Shown piece by piece: positions 18,801 through 49,681 of a DNA stretch of 64,000 nucleotides. This DNA comes from Pocillopora damicornis (Eukaryota), in assembly GCF_003704095.1 (NCBI RefSeq), contig NW_020845487.1:310001-374000 (forward strand). Direction: 5' to 3'. Each line of letters begins with the position of its first letter. The first letter of the stretch is position 1. Both the position numbers and the translations under genes were made by a program. The notes beneath the pieces are model-generated. The model did no database searches, was not told the DNA's origin, and saw only the letters and a program-made list of their open reading frames with translations.

Positions 18801-21800
18801 GAGAAGTATAATGTAGCCAAAATTGGATTTAGCTAAAAAAAGAGTTAAGACATCCTTAAGCTCAACAGAGCTGCTAATAAACGCATAACTACTTAATCGT
18901 GTGCGACAGAAAATCAATAGGTAAATACAAAGACGATTTGGCTGAGACTCTGGTTTTAATCTTATAATATTACCTTAGCTCCAAGTGAGAACTGCTTTCA
19001 GTGAATAAATGCCGAACAGTAAGATGCAAGAACGATAGCTTTGAGCAACAGATTTCTTTGTCTCTGGTAGTCACTGAAAAGAGCTCACAGAGTGTCAAAC
19101 ACTCTGACTCCTTAACCCTTAATTAGCTACAAATTAAGGATAAAGTATCAGTACCGACAGAAATCACAAGGTCAGAGTGGATTAAATCTGGCCTATGCCA
19201 ATTCTTTTATCTTTTAGAAGGCAACTCATGCAATCAAACAAATAGAAAGCCCGAGTCCATACTGCACATGAAGCCATCTAATCTGTTGAAAATTTGTTTT
19301 GGAAAGAAGTGACTTAACAAAGTTTGTCATTTTCTGATTTGAAATGACCTGTCAGCACCATCAAACTCTCCTATTCAACAATTTGCTTGAAATTCACTTA
19401 AACTTAAGTCCAATTCTCATCAGCAAAGTTTCACCATTGGATAAAAGAACGAAATGAAAACACTAAATCCAATTTGCCTAAGACATTTAACATCGCAAAT
19501 TCATCAGTCATTAAGTAATTAGACAAAGGTCTTCCCAAGCAGAAAGCACTTGTATTTCATTTAAGTAACGAAACAAGATCAACACGTAAGGTCAAAATTG
19601 TCATGAGCAATAAATGGAAAATCTGGGAATCAATTAGAACTACAGACCAGACTTCAAGCTGTGAAATTGTCTGGTTATCAATTCCCTGGTAAGTTAAATT
19701 TGCGTACGTCCTAATTCCGTATCAGAAGTTCTCTGAACGTTGTCTTACAAATTGTAAGTACGACCACTTAATGTGTTGTCAGTAATTCTTTATAAGATTA
19801 AACTGAAGCGTTATAGAAAGGCATACCCAACAGGCATACCTAACAGTTACTTCCTACTTTAACAACAAAAAACCTGATTCGGGACTGAAAGTTTGAGATG
19901 GACCAGAATAATTAATTAAATGAGGCTGTCGGTGGCTGAGTTTATAAAGCTTGAAAAACCATTCGTTTTTAGTACAGAAACAATCTCCCAAAGGGAAATG
20001 AAGAAATCCGAAGAAATCACGCGAACATACCTCAGGGTTTCCCAATCATTTGTTTAAGTGTAATGAAAAGAAAAACGTTTAGATGTAAAAAGTTTGACAA
20101 ACAAACAAAACAGTTCAAATTCAAGATACTTGTCTAGAAAGGATGACTTTCTTTAAAAAACATAGGATAAGGTCGAGCTTAAAATAACATAAAACAGGTT
20201 CCAAGCAATACCTGAATGTATTCGAAGCTGAGGGTCGGAATACACCAAACAGAAAATGTCCAGTTTCTAACCAGATATTTTACCTGCAGCTTCTCACTAG
20301 AATTAGAGACAGCTTCCTGAATATGACATTTTTTCAGATGTTTCTGACATGCAGGTCCGATGTCGTTACCTGATTGACAAGTACTTAATATACCTTAATG
20401 AAAACTTGGAAACACAAGATCATATTGCAACAATCTGGTAGCTTTTAGAAATTGAAACTTTACAGATATTGCAATTAAACAAGAAGCACAATTTAGACTT
20501 AGCCTTAAATACATTGAAATTACTAGTCAAAAATGCATCACAGAGGTAACTAATGTGTTCAGTTATTAATACGCTAAGTGGCTTGTTTTGCGTGACTGCA
20601 AAAATAAATCTGCTTATCAAATCCAAGATAAACTATCAAATTAAAATGGATATTTTAAGGACAGAAAAATAAGCACAAACCATCAAGGATTTTAAGGTTA
20701 ATAAACACATCTATTTAGACTAGAGGCAGATCAAGTGACCAAAACAGAATTTATCCCTAGAATATCAATACAGTATCAAGCAGACAAGTGGTAAGAATAG
20801 AGAAAAACATCTATTCTGGGATTATAAGTTGAGTTGATTTCAATGCCAAATTCTCCAAACTAAAATCACAACAATTGTATTGCGAAAAGTTGGGAGAATT
20901 ACTAATAAGATCTTAAGAGTGAAAGGGTTAAACTAATTTTCCCAATGTAAATCTGCCATCTATTGTGATTTACTCGTGAAATGCAGGAATATTTAACATA
21001 CACTGAAGGACAATAGACATCCTGAGTGTGTATCTATTTTCAAAGACAACAAAGTGTTTTTTTTTCCTACTGAGAAATCAAACCAGCCTTACAAAAAGCT
21101 GCAAGAATCTCTATCAGACCCTAGTTTAAAACCTGATCTCTAAATAAATAAAGCCTATTTAAGTAAAGTTACCACATCCTTAGAACCTTCACCAAAATGA
21201 TTCATTTGAAAATAAAACCTAACTTGGGAAAACTTTCACTCATAGGTACAAATACATACTTCTCCTGAAACATACTACTCGTGGTGATGCACAACTCAAG
21301 GTCTCAAATGCACCCTTAAACCCAGAAATGCCATACAGCTGTAAAACTTTGGTAGGAAATGTGGTCCCATCCCAAGCCACTCTCCTACAGATTTGGTTGC
21401 CATTAAAACACTTAAATAATGCTTGCACATTTCCTGATTAAGGATACTTGAACACAGTTTAATTGCTAAGCTAGACCACTAAATCACAATTATTTAACAT
21501 AAAATAAATCTGGGTAGCTTTGATTACTGGTTCTCAGGTATGCATGGATAACCTGATATTACACAATGTAAGAAAAAAATTGAAAAATAATAAATAAACA
21601 AATAGATACATGTACACAGATAAAGAAAAAATAAAGTCTTGTTACCCTTACCTTGTTTTGGGAGCTTGGGGAAACACGCTTCTTAAACCTGTCAATTGCT
21701 TTATCCAGGATATCAGAGTCCACAAATTCCAAATTCAGAGATCTACGCACTTCTCCTAGGAGAGCATCTAGGTGAGTCTCATCCTTCTTGTCATCATTAT

Positions 21801-24800
21801 CACTCACGGACAAAAGTTTGTCATTTGGACCACCAAGATTTAGATCAAGAGTCTCTAGATCAGTTCCCACCAATGATATCTCTGGGCAAGGTTCTGTGTC
21901 TACAAAGACCACTGTTTCTGTGCTGCCACCAAATTCTCCAAAGCGATCATCATCTGATGAATATGATGATGATGAAGCATCTCCTTGAGATTCCACATCA
22001 CTAATGGCATGCTTGTCCTCCTTTGTGGAGGTGATCACTGGTTTTTCTGGTTGTGCATCATCAAGTTCATTGAAAATTATTTTACCAACCCCCTCCTCTT
22101 TTTGTACACGGTTTGGCAGAGGTTTTGGTGTACTTGTAATGTGCATTCCATGCTTTTTTCTGTAGTCAATGAACACGTCAATACCTTCAGGACTAGCTAC
22201 TTCATGGCACAGTGTTGCTTGAGTTCTATTCTGGAAGCCCTCAGCTGGTGTAGTTAATTCTAAAATTCCTGAGTTTTCTCCATGGATACTAGCTGATTCT
22301 TTTAAATCATTGTCCCCGCGTTCAGCCTCCTTAGCAGTGGCCATGTCCTGCTTTGTATCTGGAGCTGAAAGACTTTGTTTTGCATCAAAGCCTTCATTAT
22401 CAGCTTGATTTTTATCCTTATGTGAAAATGCTCTGTCCTTCCGTGGCCTTTTCAGGCTGTGAGTGTTAGTCAACTTGCTTTGTGTTTCTATGCTATCTGT
22501 TGATTCACTACCCTCAAAAGAAACTCTCAAAACTTTTTCTTCCTTGCATTTCAGTTTCTTGAGTTTATCTTCCCTGTTATCCTGACACTCCACCTCCTCT
22601 TCAAAAACCTGTGCTCTTAGTCTCCATTCTCTGAGGCTTTTATGGATATTTTCACTGCTTTCAGAACGCCTCAGTGTCTTTGCTTCTATCACATTGGTAC
22701 GCCTCTCTCTAGCAGAATGGCCACGCCTCAAGCAGTCGTAGCTCTTAGAAGACCTCGGTGGAACATGACTAGGCTTTTTGAAGCCATTATTGTCATTCTG
22801 TTTGCCAGCAGGCCGACTTAAATGCTGCCAGCTGCTTGGTAGACTCTTTGGAGCTTTGTTGAGTCTTTCACATTTATTGTCATTTTGAGGAGATGGGCAG
22901 CTATACCTCTGTACAGAAACAGGTCTGCGAGGTACTGTCTCCTTTGGGGTACCCACTTGCATACCAGCTAGGATCTGTAGAAGCTCTTCCACAGACACAG
23001 CCTTATCACTCTCCTGAGGTGGGGCTAGCATGTCTGTGTCATTGACATAAGCAGAAGATGATGCAACTGGCTGGAATTGGTCCAGCAATGACAAATTCTG
23101 TTCCTGTGACGTTGATAGTGTGGGAGATGCTCTCTTTATTGTTGGTGTCTTGATCTGCAACTCTAGTTCTTGTAACAGCAAGGAAGGTAGCTCTCGTTGA
23201 AAGTTCACCAGAGAAGTTTGTGTTGCAACTGAAGGTGGTGGATTCAAAGCTTTGAACACAGCTGGAGGTGGTGTTTGAGTACCCCTATGTCTTCTGAAGA
23301 ATTGTTCAGCTGTTTCATGCTCAGGAACGGTTTCATCAACACAAGCTGTGTTATTTTTAAATAATCCAGTCTGAATCTCATGAGGTTCCTTGTCCTCTAA
23401 AGTTGACTTTGATGACTTCCTCTCAGTAATAGACATCACCACAGATTCAATTTCAGGATCAGGTGACACTGTCTGTGGAGACTGTAAGAGCTTTTTTATG
23501 CTCAGTGCTTCAGCTGAAATTAAGCTGTCTTTGTCTTCGCATCGAGTATAAAACTCACTGTAATCTGTATCATCAAACTCAAGTCCTGGTTCTCCACCAT
23601 CCTTTGGTTCATTTTCACAAACTATTCCTTCAAGTTCTTCGTTCTGAAATTGCCCAGAGATAAATGCCCCTTCTGATATTGGTGCTTGTGAAACTTCAGA
23701 AAACCTCTCGGAAAGAGTTTTTCTTCTAGACACCTCAGAATCTGAGCTATGTCCATTTCGTGAAGACTGAGGGCCAAACAGAGCCTCCATTGCACTGACT
23801 TTACGTCGAGTCACTGCTTTGACCAAGCCATCATGAATAGTACCATTAGTGTGATGTTGGTAACCCTGTGTCGGGAAGTTTGGCAGCTTGAAGATTTTCT
23901 CAACTTCTGAATCACTTGAAGAGCTTGTGTAAGATGAAGCCCGTCGCAGGGTCTCTGGGTGTGACACCTGAGCAGGACTAACAGGTCGAAATAAAGGTGG
24001 CTGTTCATCAGTGGCAAACTCAATAGATTGTCTCTTCAGCGCATTAATAGGATCACGACTCCCTAAGGAATGTCTTGCTCTCCTTCGTTGAACCTTAGGG
24101 AAAGAGGAGCTTTCATTGTCTGTGAGACAAATGCTGGAATCAAGTGACATACTTTTGGGAATGTGGCCATTACGAAGACCATGTGGTTGATGCCTCAATG
24201 GCTGAAATAAAGGTTCGGAATGAACACTGCTGTCATCAGAGGTGTAACCTGAATACTCCAGGTTTGATACACTTACTGTGCGGCGATCAGCCTCCCCAAA
24301 TTTTCTGTGGGAAACTTTTCTTCCAGTTGAAGGGCTCTGCAATGGTTGCCGAACAGTGCCAACAAATGGGGAGGAAAGACCACTCTCTGAACACCATGAT
24401 GACCTTGTCAGTTTGGGTGCAGGAACTTGGTAAATTTTGCGCACAAAAGGAGAGTCAACATCAACAGGACTTGGCTCACTAAATGACCACGATCTCCTTT
24501 TCAACTCAGAAGTAGTATCACCTTCTTTCCAGTTTGGGAAACCAGCAATTGACCCTGGGCGTCTTTGCGCTTTCTTCTGGTCACAAGACCTTGAACAAAT
24601 CAACAATTCATGTTTGAGTTCATTCACACGTGGATTTTGTAGCTTTCCACCTGGGCCTGTTCCCAGTTGTTCAATCTGCACAAAATCATGCAAGGACCAA
24701 ATATTGTCACTGAATTGAATATCATTGCCAGATACTGTGGTTCTTAAAAGATCACTTCCCCTTGCTGGAAATTTTAAACTTTCCATAACATTCCGTTCAG

Positions 24801-26013
24801 GTGTTGAGGTTGCTGTTGTTGAGAAGGAATGGTCAATTTCATGAACAGCACCATTGTCACCATTATGATCTACATCAGGTACAAACTGTCCTTGAATGTC
24901 AACTTTTTCATCTTCACTGACACATTCAAGCCTTGTTTTTTCATTCTCAATGCTATTGTCATGGAATTTTTCATGGACAAAAGAAGAATTCACCGAAGAC
25001 TGGAAAAAACTGCTCCCATCAATGGCAAATTCTTCTTCTTCAACTAGAGGCACAAACTGCTGTGGTGAATGTACAGCTCCCTGATGTACATTAAAAGATT
25101 CACAATCATCATTGTCACTTTCCAAGGAAAATGTCTCACTGTCTGCTAATGGGGCAATATTTTCAGCTTGGTCTTGACAATTAAGAACTAGGTGTGAATC
25201 ACTGCAACTTTCTGACGTAAAATCTTTGCTTCCAAGAGCACAAGGTGAGTCTTTGACATTTGTAGTCTGTACATTTTTAAAAACTGTGTTTTTAATTGCT
25301 CCATCTTTAGCAAATGCTTCAAAAAAGAGAACACGTGTTTCAACAGAGTTTCTCTTTGCACATTCCTGGCTCTCCTCATGCTCTCCATTGACAGCTTTGT
25401 ACTCACTTTGGCTTTCATTATAGGAGAAACGCTTGGTGACGTCTTTATTTTCGGTAAGAACTCTATCAATGTGATTAAAACTTGAAGGGGGGGCACTGCC
25501 ACGTCTTATCTTAGGCTTGGGAGGAACAGGTGGTTTCCCTCTCAATTTAATGGCATCGTTTGTTGTCAATGTACCCTCTGGAGACTCACCATAGTAAAGG
25601 CAGTAAAAATCACTGGCTCGTCTGGTTTTCTCAAGAACATCAGAAACTCCATCCACACTATCTGTAACTACAGTTTCATTTTCCCCATTTGTGATTATCT
25701 CTCCATTCATGGCATTTTCCTTGCCAGCAACATGACTATTTGCACAATTTTCTTCAGTAGCAGTTGACGCAGAAGATGCCACCAATGTAGTACCAGTATC
25801 TGCTTGACTTTCTTTATTTGCTGCTTTACACTTTTTTGAAGCTTTTTCCTTCACTGGTGAGGAGCTTATGGACCCATGCGAGCTGTCACTACTGCCATTT
25901 CTTTCAATCTCATCATCCAGGAAACACCCAGAGTCTGTTTTACTTTTGCTATCAGGTGCACTTCTTCCACGATTAGGTCGGTGAACTACTCCTGTCTTTT
26001 CTTTGCCACTCAT
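9838..26013 (-). CDS. Neuron navigator (NAV/UNC-53)-like protein: long disordered N-terminus, coiled coil, C-terminal AAA+ domain
   Basis: Phase-consistent exons: 21652-26013, then small linking exons that are uncertain (near 21350, 20284-20368, 19650, 18974), then 17913-17996, 17036-17192, 16416-16501, 16186-16263, 15565-15658, 14757-14828, 14225-14289, 13658-13764, 13316-13376, 13073-13119, 12602-12706, 12267-12347, 11911-12003, 11721-11824, 11468-11586, 10885-11038, 10294-10394, 9838-9951. The translation follows NAV motifs in order: ELKLLHDENDMLR; DSLVYDTLLPK; LLEHRCIVLCGQQGLGKSYLASKLAE (Walker A); PAVIILDQL; CPYIIG; FLRRKL; DWLSKVWYHLN; GPSLFYSCPMD..WFVNVWNYNVIPYL; WEDPTKWVVLRYPW. Confidence 0.88.
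12085..12188. repeat. Intronic minisatellite, about 38-bp unit, about 2.5 copies
   Basis: Recurring ACACTAGCAGACTGATAGACACTGACAGATA. Confidence 0.7.
13832..14183. mobile_element. Two abutting TTAA/piggyBac-like MITE copies in a NAV-like intron
   Basis: Same internal motifs as 8816-9028 and 33136-33347; junction near 14003. Confidence 0.6.
20750..20931. mobile_element. TTAA/piggyBac-like MITE, partial
   Basis: Ends ...GATCTTAAGAGTGAAAGGG|TTAA and shares the body of the 54662-54869 copy in reverse orientation. Confidence 0.65.
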
Positions 26014-44200: not shown

Positions 44201-44664
44201 ATTTCCATTAAAACAATTAAAGATGCTAGTATTGTTGACTTGCTAGCAAGATGAAGACAATCAAAAAAGTAATTTATGTATCGGTATCTCTTCGTTCTGA
44301 AGCTTAAGTAGTCCATAAAATTAAAATAATAAACACGCACGATCTCCGAAAATCTTTCACTCGTAATATCTCCTGTTATAACTCAATAAGCTAATGATCT
44401 TAATTGTTTCCTTTCTGGCCTTTCAATTAAGAATTTAAAAGTTAAAACAAGATATCTGTGAAAATCAAGACCAGTACTCACTCTTCCAGAAGAAATGTCG
44501 CAGACATTAAGCGCTCCTGCATCAATCAGATCTTGTAGATTACCACACCAGTGAGTCCATTCAGCTGTTCTACTATCAAGATAAACCAAGGCATTGTTGA
44601 CAACAGTCAAAAGTTTTTGCCAGACTGATGTTATTCCACGTTCAAGTGCGCTTTTGGCCGCCAT
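35217..44664 (-). CDS. SCFD2: Sec1 family domain-containing protein 2 (SM-family trafficking protein), about 16 exons
   Basis: Exon 1 (44482-44664), MAAKSALERGITSVWQKLLTVVNNALVYLDSRTAEWTHW, matches the SCFD2 N-terminus. Other exons: 43524-43751 (KAVFVIGTLL); 41789-41920 (GYLSKVIATELANLPAARTRRK); 40444-40620 (SLILVDRTLDLVGA..DTLADRIIQSLPRLPQHTSDVAVDM); about 35620-35750 (HPLLVLFIVGGITCSEV); last exon 35217-35307 (LLIGSTRL..DNLFPALH*). Some internal boundaries are approximate. Confidence 0.9.
36130..36430 (-). repeat. Degenerate SINE-like repeat in an SCFD2 intron
   Basis: Contains GAGAGAGGCATTGT..GTGTCTTGTCCAA..ACA..GGACTCAAGCC, a motif set related to 56040-56210. Confidence 0.45.
40805..41593. 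mobile_element. Non-autonomous Tc1/mariner (Tigger/pogo-like) element, about 790 bp
   Basis: Imperfect TIRs TA|CAGGGGAACCTTGAGTTAAG ... CACTAAATCAAGGTTCTACTA|TA with TA flanks. Confidence 0.5.
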
Positions 44665-45080: not shown

Positions 45081-45959
45081 CGTGAACTTTAATTAAATTC
45101 TTTCAAATCAGAAATTATTTGGTTAGGATGAAATGTTCAAAAAAGAAGACACGCCGTTTCATTTTCAGTTTTCGTTAAAAAGCTGTCGAATTTTCGGTCA
45201 CAAAGGGATATTTCTATGCATGGTGGAGTAATTAAAGCAAAGGATTTAGTGATGGTTTCAAATGAGGCCTAAAGCTATCGTTTGAAAATAAGTTTCTTAG
45301 CTTTCGCTGATCCGCAGCATCATCGCCGTAGAAACTTATTTCTGAGACTGTTATAGAATTGTAACTATGAAGGTTTGTCTTGGCTTCTAGTTCTCGCATA
45401 ATCCCTCACGCTAACCCTAACCCGATTAGCCCCTTGTCCTAGACCGCGAAAACAAATGGCTCGCTGATTTTACTTGGAAGGGAAAGTAACCGAAAGTAAA
45501 GTGAAAAATGTTGGTTGAGCTTTAAAAAGGAGGCTCGGAGTGTCAGAATACGAAATAATTTTGAATTTTTCACTATGTTCTTGGGCAAAGAGAATGGAAG
45601 GAATTGATTAAAACGATTAGATTACATTTACTCAGGTTTATTTCACTAGAGAAAGGAAGGTGAGAGGGTTTATTTGATTCTGTTAAGGTTTTAGACTTGG
45701 TCATGCCAGCTTGCCTGAAGGCCCTAACCTCAACCAGATCCTTAATCAATTACGCCTTAGATATGACCAACTTTTTCGATGTTTCCCAAGCTCCTCGAAA
45801 TTAAATCACCTCGTATGTGGATGAGGCAATGTTAACAAAGAAAAGCCCTTTATACCTACGATATTTCCGTACTTTTAATTTTATTTTATAGAGGGCCACT
45901 GTGTCATCAGTTTTATTACTTTAGTGTGCTACTCTCTATAAATTAAGTTTTCTCTAATT

Positions 45960-46144
45960 TACTGTATCAGTATAAATTTGTGGAGTGTCAGATGATTAAT
46001 TTTGGCTTTGCCTCGATTAACTCGGAAAGGTCGGCGATCCAAGCTCTGAACATTGTTTTCTGTTAATATTCTTGGTATGCTCTCAATCATTGGCTATGGG
46101 TGCGTTGGTTGCGGAGAGATGTCCTAATAAGAATGACATCATAT
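45960..46144 (-). pseudogene. Decayed continuation of the connexin-like ORF resembling a pre-NACHT linker
   Basis: Same frame after the stop: I*CHSY*DISPQPTHP*PMIESIPRILTENNVQSLDRRPFRVNRGKAKINHLTL, then QIYTD after a frameshift (LxLxxIYT-type motif). Confidence 0.5.
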
Positions 46145-46918
46145 TCATTTCCGTCCCTTTTGCTGTGAGCGGCCTTGGGGCGAGTCGGGAATATTTAGGT
46201 GGTCAGTAAGAAACGTTTTTCTTCGCAAAAAAATGCAGAGCATTTCAATCAAAATAAGAAGCACGTAAGTTCCATTCGTTACGAGAAGAGCACGCAACCA
46301 GAAGGTCTTCTTCTTTGCCCGTGGATTGTGACACTCGAGCTCGAGTGGGATAATTCTGCGCTGATCATCTTCTCCTGTTGTTGAGCAATGAAATTTGGGG
46401 AGAATTTCGAAACGATAGAGCAACAGAGTTTGTAAGATAATAAACAATACCCCTGTGACAAGCCTTATGGAAAGTTGATAACAGTAAGCAAGAAAAAGCT
46501 TGCGTCCCATTCTTTCTTTTTCGTCGTTACGTGACTGTCTCCCTTCATCGTCGTGTGACTGTTTGCTGTTCTGTAATTGATCGACTATAGGACTCGCTAT
46601 CTGGGCGTAAACTGCACAAACAAACCCCACAAGGAAGCAATGTACAATCACGAAGCCATAGATAGGGACACTATATTCGTTATACCGCCTCTCGTACAGC
46701 TCAAAACACTTTCCCCGGTAAAGTTCGCTGTTGTCGATGTCGTCGCTGCGTTCTGGAGCCCCACTGCAGTGAAAGTCAAACCTGGATTCCCTGTGTTCGA
46801 TGTCTACAAAGACACCAGAAAGGGTTACTGCGAGTCCGAACCACAAGATAACTGCTACGTAACTTAGCAGGTTTAAGGTTTTCGGTCCTAGTATTTTTTT
46901 AAGAGCTTCAGCATCCAT
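46145..46918 (-). CDS. Intronless four-transmembrane connexin-like protein, 257 aa, resembling the N-terminal TM domain of anthozoan membrane-anchored NLRs
   Basis: Four hydrophobic helices. EL1 is ESRFDFHC...GKCFELY (connexin EQSxFxC...CYD). TM3 is RKLFLAYCYQLSIRLVTGVLFIILQTLLLY (connexin LLxTY..K..F..Q..LY). EL2 is KFHC...LECHNPRAKKKTFW (connexin YxC...VDCFxSRPTEKTxF). TM4 ends LLILIEM (connexin LNxxE). Strong start context GCGATGG. Confidence 0.8.
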   Translation of the reverse strand: MDAEALKKILGPKTLNLLSYVAVILWFGLAVTLSGVFVDIEHRESRFDFHCSGAPERSDDIDNSELYRGKCFELYERRYNEYSVPIYGFVIVHCFLVGFVCAVYAQIASPIVDQLQNSKQSHDDEGRQSRNDEKERMGRKLFLAYCYQLSIRLVTGVLFIILQTLLLYRFEILPKFHCSTTGEDDQRRIIPLELECHNPRAKKKTFWLRALLVTNGTYVLLILIEMLCIFLRRKTFLTDHLNIPDSPQGRSQQKGRK

Positions 46919-47011
46919 CGCTCCCGTTTGTTCGAGTAAGATTCTTCTTCACTCATTTGTCATCTGACGATGGTCAATAAAACGTGTGGTTTTCATATCA
47001 CCTCTGATGCA

Positions 47012-47115
47012 GGGTTTATTTAAAGACATGCTTGAATATTATTGGTCGGTAGGAAAGAGAGTTGATTCACACAGGAACCCAATGTCAGAAACCGAAACTG
47101 GAAACTGAAATGAAA
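47012..47115 (-). promoter_or_regulatory. Promoter of the connexin-like gene: TATA-like box, CCAAT and tandem ISRE/IRF sites
   Basis: On the minus strand: TTTAAATAAA (about 47014-47023), CCAAT (47041-47045) and TTTCATTTCAGTTTCCAGTTTCGGTTTC (47088-47115), which contains the canonical AGTTTCNNTTTC. Confidence 0.6.
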
Positions 47116-48418
47116 AAATAAAATAAGACACTAAAATAGATACCTGTATCTGCTGCTTGGGCAGAATTTTCGTCACTTGTTTACCTATGTTATGGTGAGT
47201 CGCTGGAGAAGACGCTTTAAATTGTTATTGAATACTGAACAAGTATTATCATATCTCGCAGTTAGTACTTGAGCAACCACCCCTGGTCATAATTCTTACA
47301 TGGGCAGTAAAAGCCATCACAAAACTTCCGAAAATGAGATGAATACTCATAAAAAGGGAAAACTGTCTGAGAATATCTAATGACAGTTCTGAAGGACTGT
47401 AGAATTCCAGCAACCGGGTTCCCCTGATTTCAGTACTTTGGAGGAAAAACCGCTTATCGACCTTTCGTTCGATAAGAGACGAAAAGTCAGTGGTATATTG
47501 TCTGTAATAGAGTACTGGCATTGTGAAGAAGCAATCTCGACAATTTACGTTTTGGATAGGATAGATCTTCGTTCACGGAAAGTCGATGTCAGTGCAACTA
47601 GCGCAGCGGGATTGAAATCTGATTGATGTTTTCATTCAAACTGGTCTTATATTTCCTTTCTAAATTTCTCGATTCTGATTAGCTGAGAGAAATGCAGATT
47701 TCAGGAAATATACTGAACTAAGAAGGAAATTTAGTGCAGGAAAAAGCCTTAGGTAATTTAATGCAAAAATAGTAAAAAAAAAAAAAAAAGAACAACATCA
47801 ACAGGGCAATCTGATTGGTTGATAAACAAAGGCACTCACAAAGAACCAATCAAACATGAGCTCTGGATGACGCAAAGTTGCAAAGCGAGATACTTTCATG
47901 ATAGATAGTATCTTCGCCAAGTTTGAGCTAAATTAGTGATTTGAACATTACCACCCCCTGCCTGGTTTTCTCGTGGATACGCTCTTGATACATTAGCATA
48001 AGACTTCAAAACCATTATGTAATGATAGTGCTACTGAAGGACATCATACAACGATGCTAGAGGAAGTCGCTGTCGCAAACGATTTCGCCTAAAGTTTGCC
48101 GGGATGTGTTTTCTGGCTTAAATAGCACAATTGACAAGGCCACTTCACTAGAGATAACGAATTATCGTTGATAAACCCCAACGGCCAAGAGAGTCGGAAC
48201 AGAATTTGAAAACCTTTTTTTTTTTTTTAAGAGAACACATATATATGATTGTTTAATTCATACTCGTAGTGAAGGTATAGAACACGTCGTTTGAAGAACA
48301 AGTTTGCTACCACATTGAAGTCACATCTAAGTTTTATTGTGTCTGATTCTACAATTAAAATGGTAGAGTTATTGTAAATATACAATTTATATATATTTAT
48401 TTGTCTTATCTGCAGTCC

Positions 48419-49681
48419 TCAAACAATAAACTGAATATAAGCTGCTGAATGAGATTCTGTGTCACATTTCGTGGCATGTTTTTCCATTTTTCGCGATCTC
48501 TTCACCCGACGTCCTTTGTTTTCTTTCTCGACAAACATAACGTGAACGGAATCGTCAAATTTGATAGCCTTGTCTTTCTTAGAATAAACAGAGCGAATCT
48601 TGGCAACCGTATTTTCTAACTCGTTTTCAATGTGGAATAGATCTCTGTTTGTGAACCCGTAAATCAACTGCCACTCCTGGTTGATTCTTTTCAGTACCTC
48701 GGGATCAATGAGCGGTCCCTTTGCACGTCTCTCTTTTCTTTTCTCGCGCAGCATTTGTCGCCGTTTCTTCCACAGTTCATGACCGTCACCTTCAGTAGCC
48801 TCCTTAACAGTGCTCGCTGAGCTCGCTGGGAGCCTATTGACTTGTGTGACAGGGCGTTTAGCGGCTGATTGCATTCTTTCTTGCGTGACACGATGGACGT
48901 AAAGAGGGGTAACGGGACCAGGTGAGAAATCCAAACGGGCGCCATTCTTCTCAACTTTGTCATTTCGAAGCCAAACATAACTTTTTGTGTGTACTGCTAC
49001 CAGTGACAATGCCAGAAGACTTCCAAAAACAGTAAATATTGTAGGAAACAGGAAATCTGGAAAAAAAATACCAAAGAACCTATTTATTTATGCATGATCA
49101 CAAGTAAAATTAGGAGCAAATATATCTTCGTTGTGAAAAAAATTTAGTAAAGATAAACTTGATGAAAACCGAAACTATAGAGCAACAGCCTCGATTGCTT
49201 TTCTTTTTAAATTTGTTTGTTTGTTGTTTTTTTCTTTTTTTCAGCAAAGCCTGTTCTCAGTGTTATACATGCTAGTGTTCTTGGCATAATCGTTCACCAT
49301 TGACAGAAACAAACGCGAAGCGCGTGGGCCATAAATTAATTGGAGTGAAAAAAGCGACGTTCCTCAACTTATAGTGCGGACTGAGAAAACAAGGTAAGTA
49401 AGGTATTTATTATATCTCTGGGTTCAAACAGAGGGGGAACGTTTAAATTCAAACGGGCCCCATAGTTAAATAAAACCCGCTAAATTGACTAATCATTGCG
49501 CACGTATTAAGATATGAAAACGATTTCTATATCTATTTAGGTTTTTCTTACCACTGGCTGTTGTCAGATGCGTCAGATACCTAGCGTGACTGGGTAGGGA
49601 GTGGCTGAACTTAGCACTCCGCTCTCCAGTGGGACTTGCCGTTGCCAACAAAAAACAGATTAAAACGATCGTAACTTTCAT
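48419..49681 (-). CDS. Uncharacterised type-I single-pass membrane protein, 255 aa; coding exons 49552-49681 and 48419-49056; UTR exon ending near 49796
   Basis: Signal peptide MKVTIVLICFLLATA. A phase-1 GTAAG donor at 49551 joins the acceptor TTTTTTCCAG at 49057 in frame. TM segment FLFPTIFTVFGSLLALSLVAV, followed by a basic cytoplasmic tail containing KAIKFDDSVHVMF. Confidence 0.7.

Follow-up and report, generated by a model that had tools for sequence, protein, structure and literature searches.

A tandem IRF-type array upstream of a coral connexin-like gene: a predicted immune-linked promoter element

A tandem array of five GAAA cores stands upstream of a connexin-like (CxL) gene of the coral Pocillopora damicornis and, from the comparisons presented here, is predicted to be an IRF-bound promoter element that contributes to immune-linked transcription of this channel gene, a reading which we regard as probable. 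The array itself appears to be a genuine, non-random promoter element; it is apparently old and belongs to a known class. An IRF-type proximal promoter element had been proposed in a preliminary description of the window (the whole 64-kb stretch of contig NW_020845487.1 that was analysed), and indirect tests now favour that proposal: the array lies upstream of the transcript, is retained among paralogues and has a single-copy flank, while the corresponding consensus appears constrained at STING promoters and IRF domains are encoded in the genome. Earlier reports describe IRF motifs in the promoters of cnidarian antiviral genes, and the element type itself is ordinary; the new part is the link of such an element to the connexin-like family. 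No report of an element on this family, or of conserved sites at coral STING promoters, was found in the open-access literature.

The features of the locus are collected in Table 1. The letters of the array are as quoted in the preliminary description, the five cores occupying positions -170 to -197 relative to the ATG, and the 13-mer given there is indeed present on the minus strand of the array. The CCAAT and TATA-like boxes that had been placed close by both lie between the array and the ATG, and a second CCAAT is found at 47079-47083 on the strand opposite to the gene. Further upstream there are a GAS-like word (-654) and an ETS-like word (-406); the latter has no counterpart among the paralogues in a comparison spanning 600 bp upstream, and neither word is taken as evidence here.

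Table 1. Features of the connexin-like locus (window coordinates)
Feature	Position	Strand	Remarks
Transcribed, unspliced span	45631..46967	-	RNA contigs, four studies
Two AATAAA polyadenylation-like signals	45637..45674	-	Where RNA contigs end
Connexin-like (CxL) gene, stand-alone, single-exon, 257 aa	46145..46918	-	ATG at 46918
TATA-like word	47015..47024	-	AT-rich words aligned here in paralogue promoters; putative function
CCAAT box	47041..47045	-	Aligned counterpart in paralogue L011; putative function
IRF-type array, five GAAA cores	47088..47115	+	Opposite to the gene's strand
Weak kappaB-like word	47416..47424	-	About -500; absent from paralogues; may be chance

Perfect matches to GAAASYGAAASY, which we take to be the IRF consensus 12-mer and which was scored with a spacer of 2 or 3, number only two in the 64-kb window; these overlap, starting at 47088 and 47094. 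The array thus contains the tandem GAAA cores (at least two) fitting the IRF consensus that mark an element of the IRF-E/ISRE type, and it presumably resembles the ISG15 element. When 64 kb were simulated by Markov models of order 2 or order 4 (60 runs of each), no five-core array arose, for a pattern that was defined post hoc, with the site already seen. The likeness to the vertebrate IRF-E and ISRE, as these are presented in the available text of PMC7819612, extends to the tandem GAAA cores, the two-base spacers, the proximity to the transcription start and the nearby TATA-like and CCAAT words. In contrast to the vertebrate elements, the array comprises five cores, belongs to a cnidarian, a group without interferon or ISGF3 signalling, and is a candidate element. 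Of the earlier claim of an ISRE match, therefore, the part concerning IRF-consensus cores stands, whereas the strict sense of the term, a site for ISGF3 (STAT1-STAT2-IRF9), does not apply to cnidarians, which are without interferon signalling. Since a strict ISRE needs such signalling, the stretch is better called an IRF-E array.

Similar words occur at two other places in the window. A weaker, three-core GAAA array lies at 45156-45173 (minus strand), approximately 500 bp upstream of the ATG at 44664 of the next gene downstream of the connexin-like gene, which is expressed, and a GAAA-spacer-GAAACT word is present at 49162-49176, where the neighbouring gene on the upstream side has an intron or its flank.

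The position of the array relative to the transcript was assessed with RNA contigs, which cannot reveal the true transcription start or strand. At the gene-start end, the contigs of three studies terminate at 46957, 46958 and 46967, i.e. 120-130 bp short of the array, and those of a fourth at 46925, at adapter letters. Because the contigs of the three studies stop within 10 bases of one another, 50-60 bp downstream of the TATA-like word, they give a weak hint that the array lies some 100-130 bp upstream of the transcription start, and they weakly place it outside the mature transcript, as befits a promoter position. A shallow contig from a random-primed run spans the array continuously (47049-47277); it probably derives from DNA or pre-mRNA. 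At the opposite end, the transcript continues unspliced past the stop codon into the 3' UTR.

These contigs also bear on whether the stretch, read on the gene strand, could be a 3' splice site (pyrimidine tract plus AG) belonging to a 5'-UTR intron, its ISRE likeness being incidental. The gene strand does present a T-rich tract followed twice by CAG, a donor-like word occurs at -268, and donor-like words are found near -400 in four paralogues. We nevertheless hold a splice acceptor to be very improbable, because the RNA contigs are unspliced and end before the array: among transcripts of the window gene from four studies no joint or skipped part is seen, the deep contigs stop 120-160 bp short of the array and the shallow one crosses it gap-free. 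Furthermore, the AG of the third unit is absent from three of ten aligned paralogue copies in which the TTTC after it is kept, and the sites at STING genes lie in the opposite orientation.

The gene downstream of the array encodes a protein whose 257-aa open reading frame matches the Pfam Connexin domain with an E-value of 1.8e-10, above the curated cut-off, and this domain lies in a single coding exon, as is characteristic of CxL genes. With the CxL30 of Pocillopora meandrina (pmCxL30) and the anthozoan CxL family the gene shares a size of approximately 30 kDa and the single coding exon. The window protein agrees with the published description of pmCxL30 in the nine N-terminal residues and in K140 and R232, so that its gene is likely to be the orthologue of the latter, as judged from sequence. 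The traits of CO2-gated CxL proteins, namely a charged N-terminal helix and a TM3 Lys / TM4 Arg pair, are likewise present when compared with the residues named in the preprint. According to the available text of that preprint, pmCxL30 is a hemichannel, not a gap-junction former, that releases ATP and glutamate when the membrane is depolarised or CO2 is raised (bioRxiv 10.64898/2026.06.13.731801). An ATP- and glutamate-releasing activity is predicted for the window protein by analogy, being carried over from pmCxL30. In one RNA run, a 24-base in-frame deletion is seen in the connexin-like frame at 46529 amid many synonymous-looking variants, representing a length polymorphism in the intracellular loop. 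Elsewhere in the window, a 1484-aa open frame of low complexity (21559-26013, minus strand), which has no Pfam match above cut-off, probably represents one large exon of a gene that has several.

The genome contains 22 matches to the window protein, and a NACHT domain was found in all five long paralogues tested. Unlike these connexin-NLR paralogues, the window protein carries no NACHT domain, as it stops at residue 257, and no NACHT remnant was matched anywhere in the 64-kb window. It is approximately 50% identical to the paralogues and sits on a long branch of their tree, which is poorly resolved (two of nine branches supported) and shows this long branch only. From the stop at residue 257, the missing remnant, the long branch and the NACHT domains of the paralogues we infer that the window gene descends from a connexin-NLR whose receptor half, with the NACHT domain, was lost. 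A search among proteins of similar length returned only the gene's own cluster; there are therefore no distant stand-alone orthologues for comparison.

The paralogues offer a comparison of promoters, as had been suggested in the preliminary description, and among them the array is the best-kept part of the promoter. The 600 bp upstream of the gene were scanned in 30-nt sliding windows (39 in all) for similarity to the flanks of 16 connexin-NLR paralogues; nine of the 16 scored above the background 95th percentile at the array, with a mean of 23.0 versus 14.5 for background and 14.8 for GPCR genes, whereas the best window not overlapping the array reached this level in six paralogues only (mean 17.8). 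BLAST of the same 600 bp against the 16 flanks gave top matches on the array, most of them to paralogue positions between -240 and -170, although the element is displaced in three of them (-59, -451 and -732). Ten hand-picked copies, when aligned, have a four-unit TTTC frame in common, so that four of the cores of the array align with a conserved unit, the second core being often degenerate in the paralogue copies. No clear array was seen in 7 of the 16 paralogue entries within the 400 bp tested, and a perfect IRF-consensus site within 400 bp of the ATG was present in none of the 16, only the window's copy being perfect near the ATG. Six paralogues possess a second perfect or one-mismatch site between -546 and -914. 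Taken over L002, L003, L005, L007, L010 and L012, second sites resembling the IRF consensus extend from -546 to -1009, and the window's gene has no counterpart of them within 1200 bp. As the paralogues are related to one another, and the STING copies likewise, such counts are not independent.

This pattern is relevant to the suggestion that the array is a degenerate ancestral pyrimidine-rich promoter stretch in which slippage of a hexamer generated, by chance, an ISRE look-alike without IRF-dependent function. TRF indeed calls the array a weak (GAAACT)x4.7 repeat (score 33), the perfect match near the ATG is confined to the window's copy, and local alignment scores are inflated by T-rich words. 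Against slippage, the four-unit frame is common to distant paralogues at a similar place, in promoters whose remainder is barely alignable, and for this reason the array would seem to be old and not the product of a recent slip. We consider a chance look-alike unlikely, and retain a promoter element bound by IRFs as the better account. The possibility, raised beforehand, that the motif might be part of a dispersed repeat was also addressed: the segment 46900-47400 matched only itself in a genome search that passes over simple and very common words, i.e. the flank of the array is single-copy.

We then consider the IRF consensus across the genome. The single 12-mer shows no enrichment, with 377 perfect matches versus 421 for the reversed control, a count which agrees with slippage, and the triple-core form shows a mild enrichment (79 versus 49). 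When genes are taken as the starting point, a perfect consensus within 400 bp of the ATG is found in four of five STING genes, compared with 1 of 30 GPCR genes and 8 of 748 background windows. The corresponding figures are one of four IRF genes and one of six usable GBP-family entries, the other six of twelve having been skipped as their exon is without an ATG. Among Mab-21/cGLR genes no perfect consensus was present within 400 bp in any of 25 (5 of 30 being skipped for short or gapped flanks), viperin has no perfect site within 400 bp and only a one-mismatch site approximately 455 bp upstream, and the search for OAS gave one weak match and was uninformative. Upstream of nine GBP-family matches, five perfect sites occur in 59 kb (Poisson P ~0.02), at 1.7-3.9 kb from the first matched exon, these distances being referred to exons and not to gene starts. 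The sites are L311:4261, L316:2346 and 5085, L317:2129 and L318:3871, and two of them overlap a kappaB-like half site.

The four STING promoters with a perfect site are 50-67% identical, yet all changes within the site fall on its degenerate positions, and the IRF consensus therefore looks constrained there, as far as these sequences go; this counts against the slippage reading. Like the array, the STING promoters have a perfect IRF consensus followed by CCAAT, at 240-270 bp upstream of the ATG. They differ in that STING has two sense-strand cores flanked by clear kappaB-like words, whereas the channel gene has five antisense cores and no nearby kappaB. The STING module, at 238-269 bp upstream of the ATG in L215-L218, consists of a kappaB-like word, a perfect IRF consensus, a CCAAT and a second kappaB-like word, and it might serve experiments as a cleaner substrate than does the channel-gene array.

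The converse test, starting from the motif, was negative. It covered 60 regions of ±5 kb containing 61 of 68 distinct triple-core sites (7 being left out), after exclusion of the window's own site and of nine matches at places shared with the control, and Pfam was run on 263 test and 249 control ORFs of at least 100 aa, a setting of low power in which shorter exons are missed. Within 5 kb of the triple-core sites in these 60 regions, no STING, GBP, OAS, RLR, viperin or IRF domain was found, whereas one STING was present among 38 reversed-pattern control regions. Immune-type matches in the test set were NACHT (one), SPATA2-PUB (two paralogues), Filamin+NHL (one) and Ig (one), versus STING, LRR, TPR, Ig and ubiquitin-like, in one region each, in the control; hence there is no enrichment of immune domains near triple-core sites (60 test versus 38 control regions). 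This lack of a tie to immune genes agrees with slippage, but the test is weak both ways, because the control regions also contain some IRF-like words. With gene-first counts partly positive and the motif-first test negative, the IRF word is, on these sequence counts, used at some immune promoters and does not by itself identify one. Among the 60 other triple-core regions, five cores are present in one and four cores in four.

Some individual regions deserve mention. In each of the two SPATA2 PUB paralogues, L147 and L148, a triple-core site stands 1.2-1.3 kb upstream of the matched exon, with an ETS-like word behind it. The IRF gene L054 has, approximately 130 bp upstream of its ATG, 16 bases in common with the start and flank of the array, which is possibly a chance match or an autoregulatory site. 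In the control set, L199:5213-5653 and L206:5033-5740 share the same 17-base match and weak Herpes_teg_N Pfam matches, which suggests that they belong to a repeated element family.

Any IRF-type element requires a cognate factor, and four IRF DNA-binding exons or domains are present in the genome. The IRF domain of L055 aligns to the solved IRF2 with an E-value of 2e-41 and keeps W11, W38, W58, R82, C83 and N86, which are among the GAAA-determinant residues of IRFs listed in the available text of PMC7819612. In both IRF1/2-like coral domains the recognition-helix residue S87 is replaced by alanine, which counts against the IRF reading. The coral genome has IRF domains with most of the residues that contact GAAA. 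The array could also be a functional element read by another GAAA/GGAAA factor, such as NFAT or a PRDM1/Blimp-type repressor, both kinds of factor having a preference for such words; we regard this as distinctly unlikely. The GGAAA words and the degenerate second core of the paralogue copies would suit such a factor, whereas the window's copy has one GGAAA only. NFAT is, moreover, expressed in coral immune cells, which co-express IRF1/2, STING and NLRs (PMC8162421, available text). When five IRFs were knocked down one at a time in Nematostella (40-60%), or STAT was, induction by cGAMP, in which NF-kB plays a role, stayed the same (PMC8713801, available text); this tells against a simple IRF model and would also suit a factor other than an IRF. 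Nevertheless, the 6-7 bp tandem spacing of the GAAA cores, with C/T spacers, fits the rule given for IRFs in PMC7819612 as far as available, 'AANNGAAA, two or more GAAA repeats', and we continue to favour IRFs as the predicted ligands.

Published cnidarian data provide a setting for this prediction. In the available text of PMC8476169, promoters of Nematostella vectensis induced by poly(I:C) are enriched in IRF, STAT, NF-kB and ETS motifs and in TATA boxes; the IRF motifs and TATA boxes resemble those of the window gene, although theirs are a statistical enrichment obtained with vertebrate matrices and not one individual element. An antiviral programme including IRF2 is reported to be common to anemone and coral (PMC13319465, available part), and Nematostella has no type I interferon and a single STAT (PMC8713801, available text). 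No connexin-like gene appears in the main text of PMC8476169 or in the part of its supplement searched, and no connexin term occurs in four small supplementary files of PMC13319465, the large data tables lying outside these. The words interferon, IRF and promoter are absent from the available text of the connexin preprint, which treats channel function (10.64898/2026.06.13.731801), and the available part of PMC11444771 contains nothing on the element.

Taken as a mechanism, a connexin-NLR ancestor would have lost its NACHT part and kept its promoter array, and the tandem cores would be occupied by several IRF molecules, like those of the vertebrate IRF-E/ISRE. With IRFs bound, transcription would increase in immune cells, upon the sensing of nucleic acids, or both, and the array would thereby tie expression of the predicted ATP/glutamate hemichannel to the immune programme of the coral. 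Sites for IRFs are equally able to support basal expression in immune cells. The preliminary description proposed, more specifically, that the channel gene is an IRF-induced, ISG-like antiviral gene. This is a candidate reading, and induction by nucleic-acid stimuli through the array, as of a virus-induced antiviral gene, is put forward tentatively, as a possibility somewhat short of even. Bolder still, and improbable as a whole, is a scheme in which an IRF-controlled ancestral promoter would switch on the stand-alone hemichannel after virus sensing, the released ATP or glutamate would act as a cell-to-cell alarm, and the whole connexin-NLR family would form an IRF regulon.

The array offers a compact, five-core, single-copy substrate for asking whether IRFs drive the interferon-like programme of cnidarians, single IRF knockdowns having been without effect. 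The channel gene, as the likely orthologue of a characterised ATP-release channel, is a candidate for spreading an antiviral state between cells without interferon.
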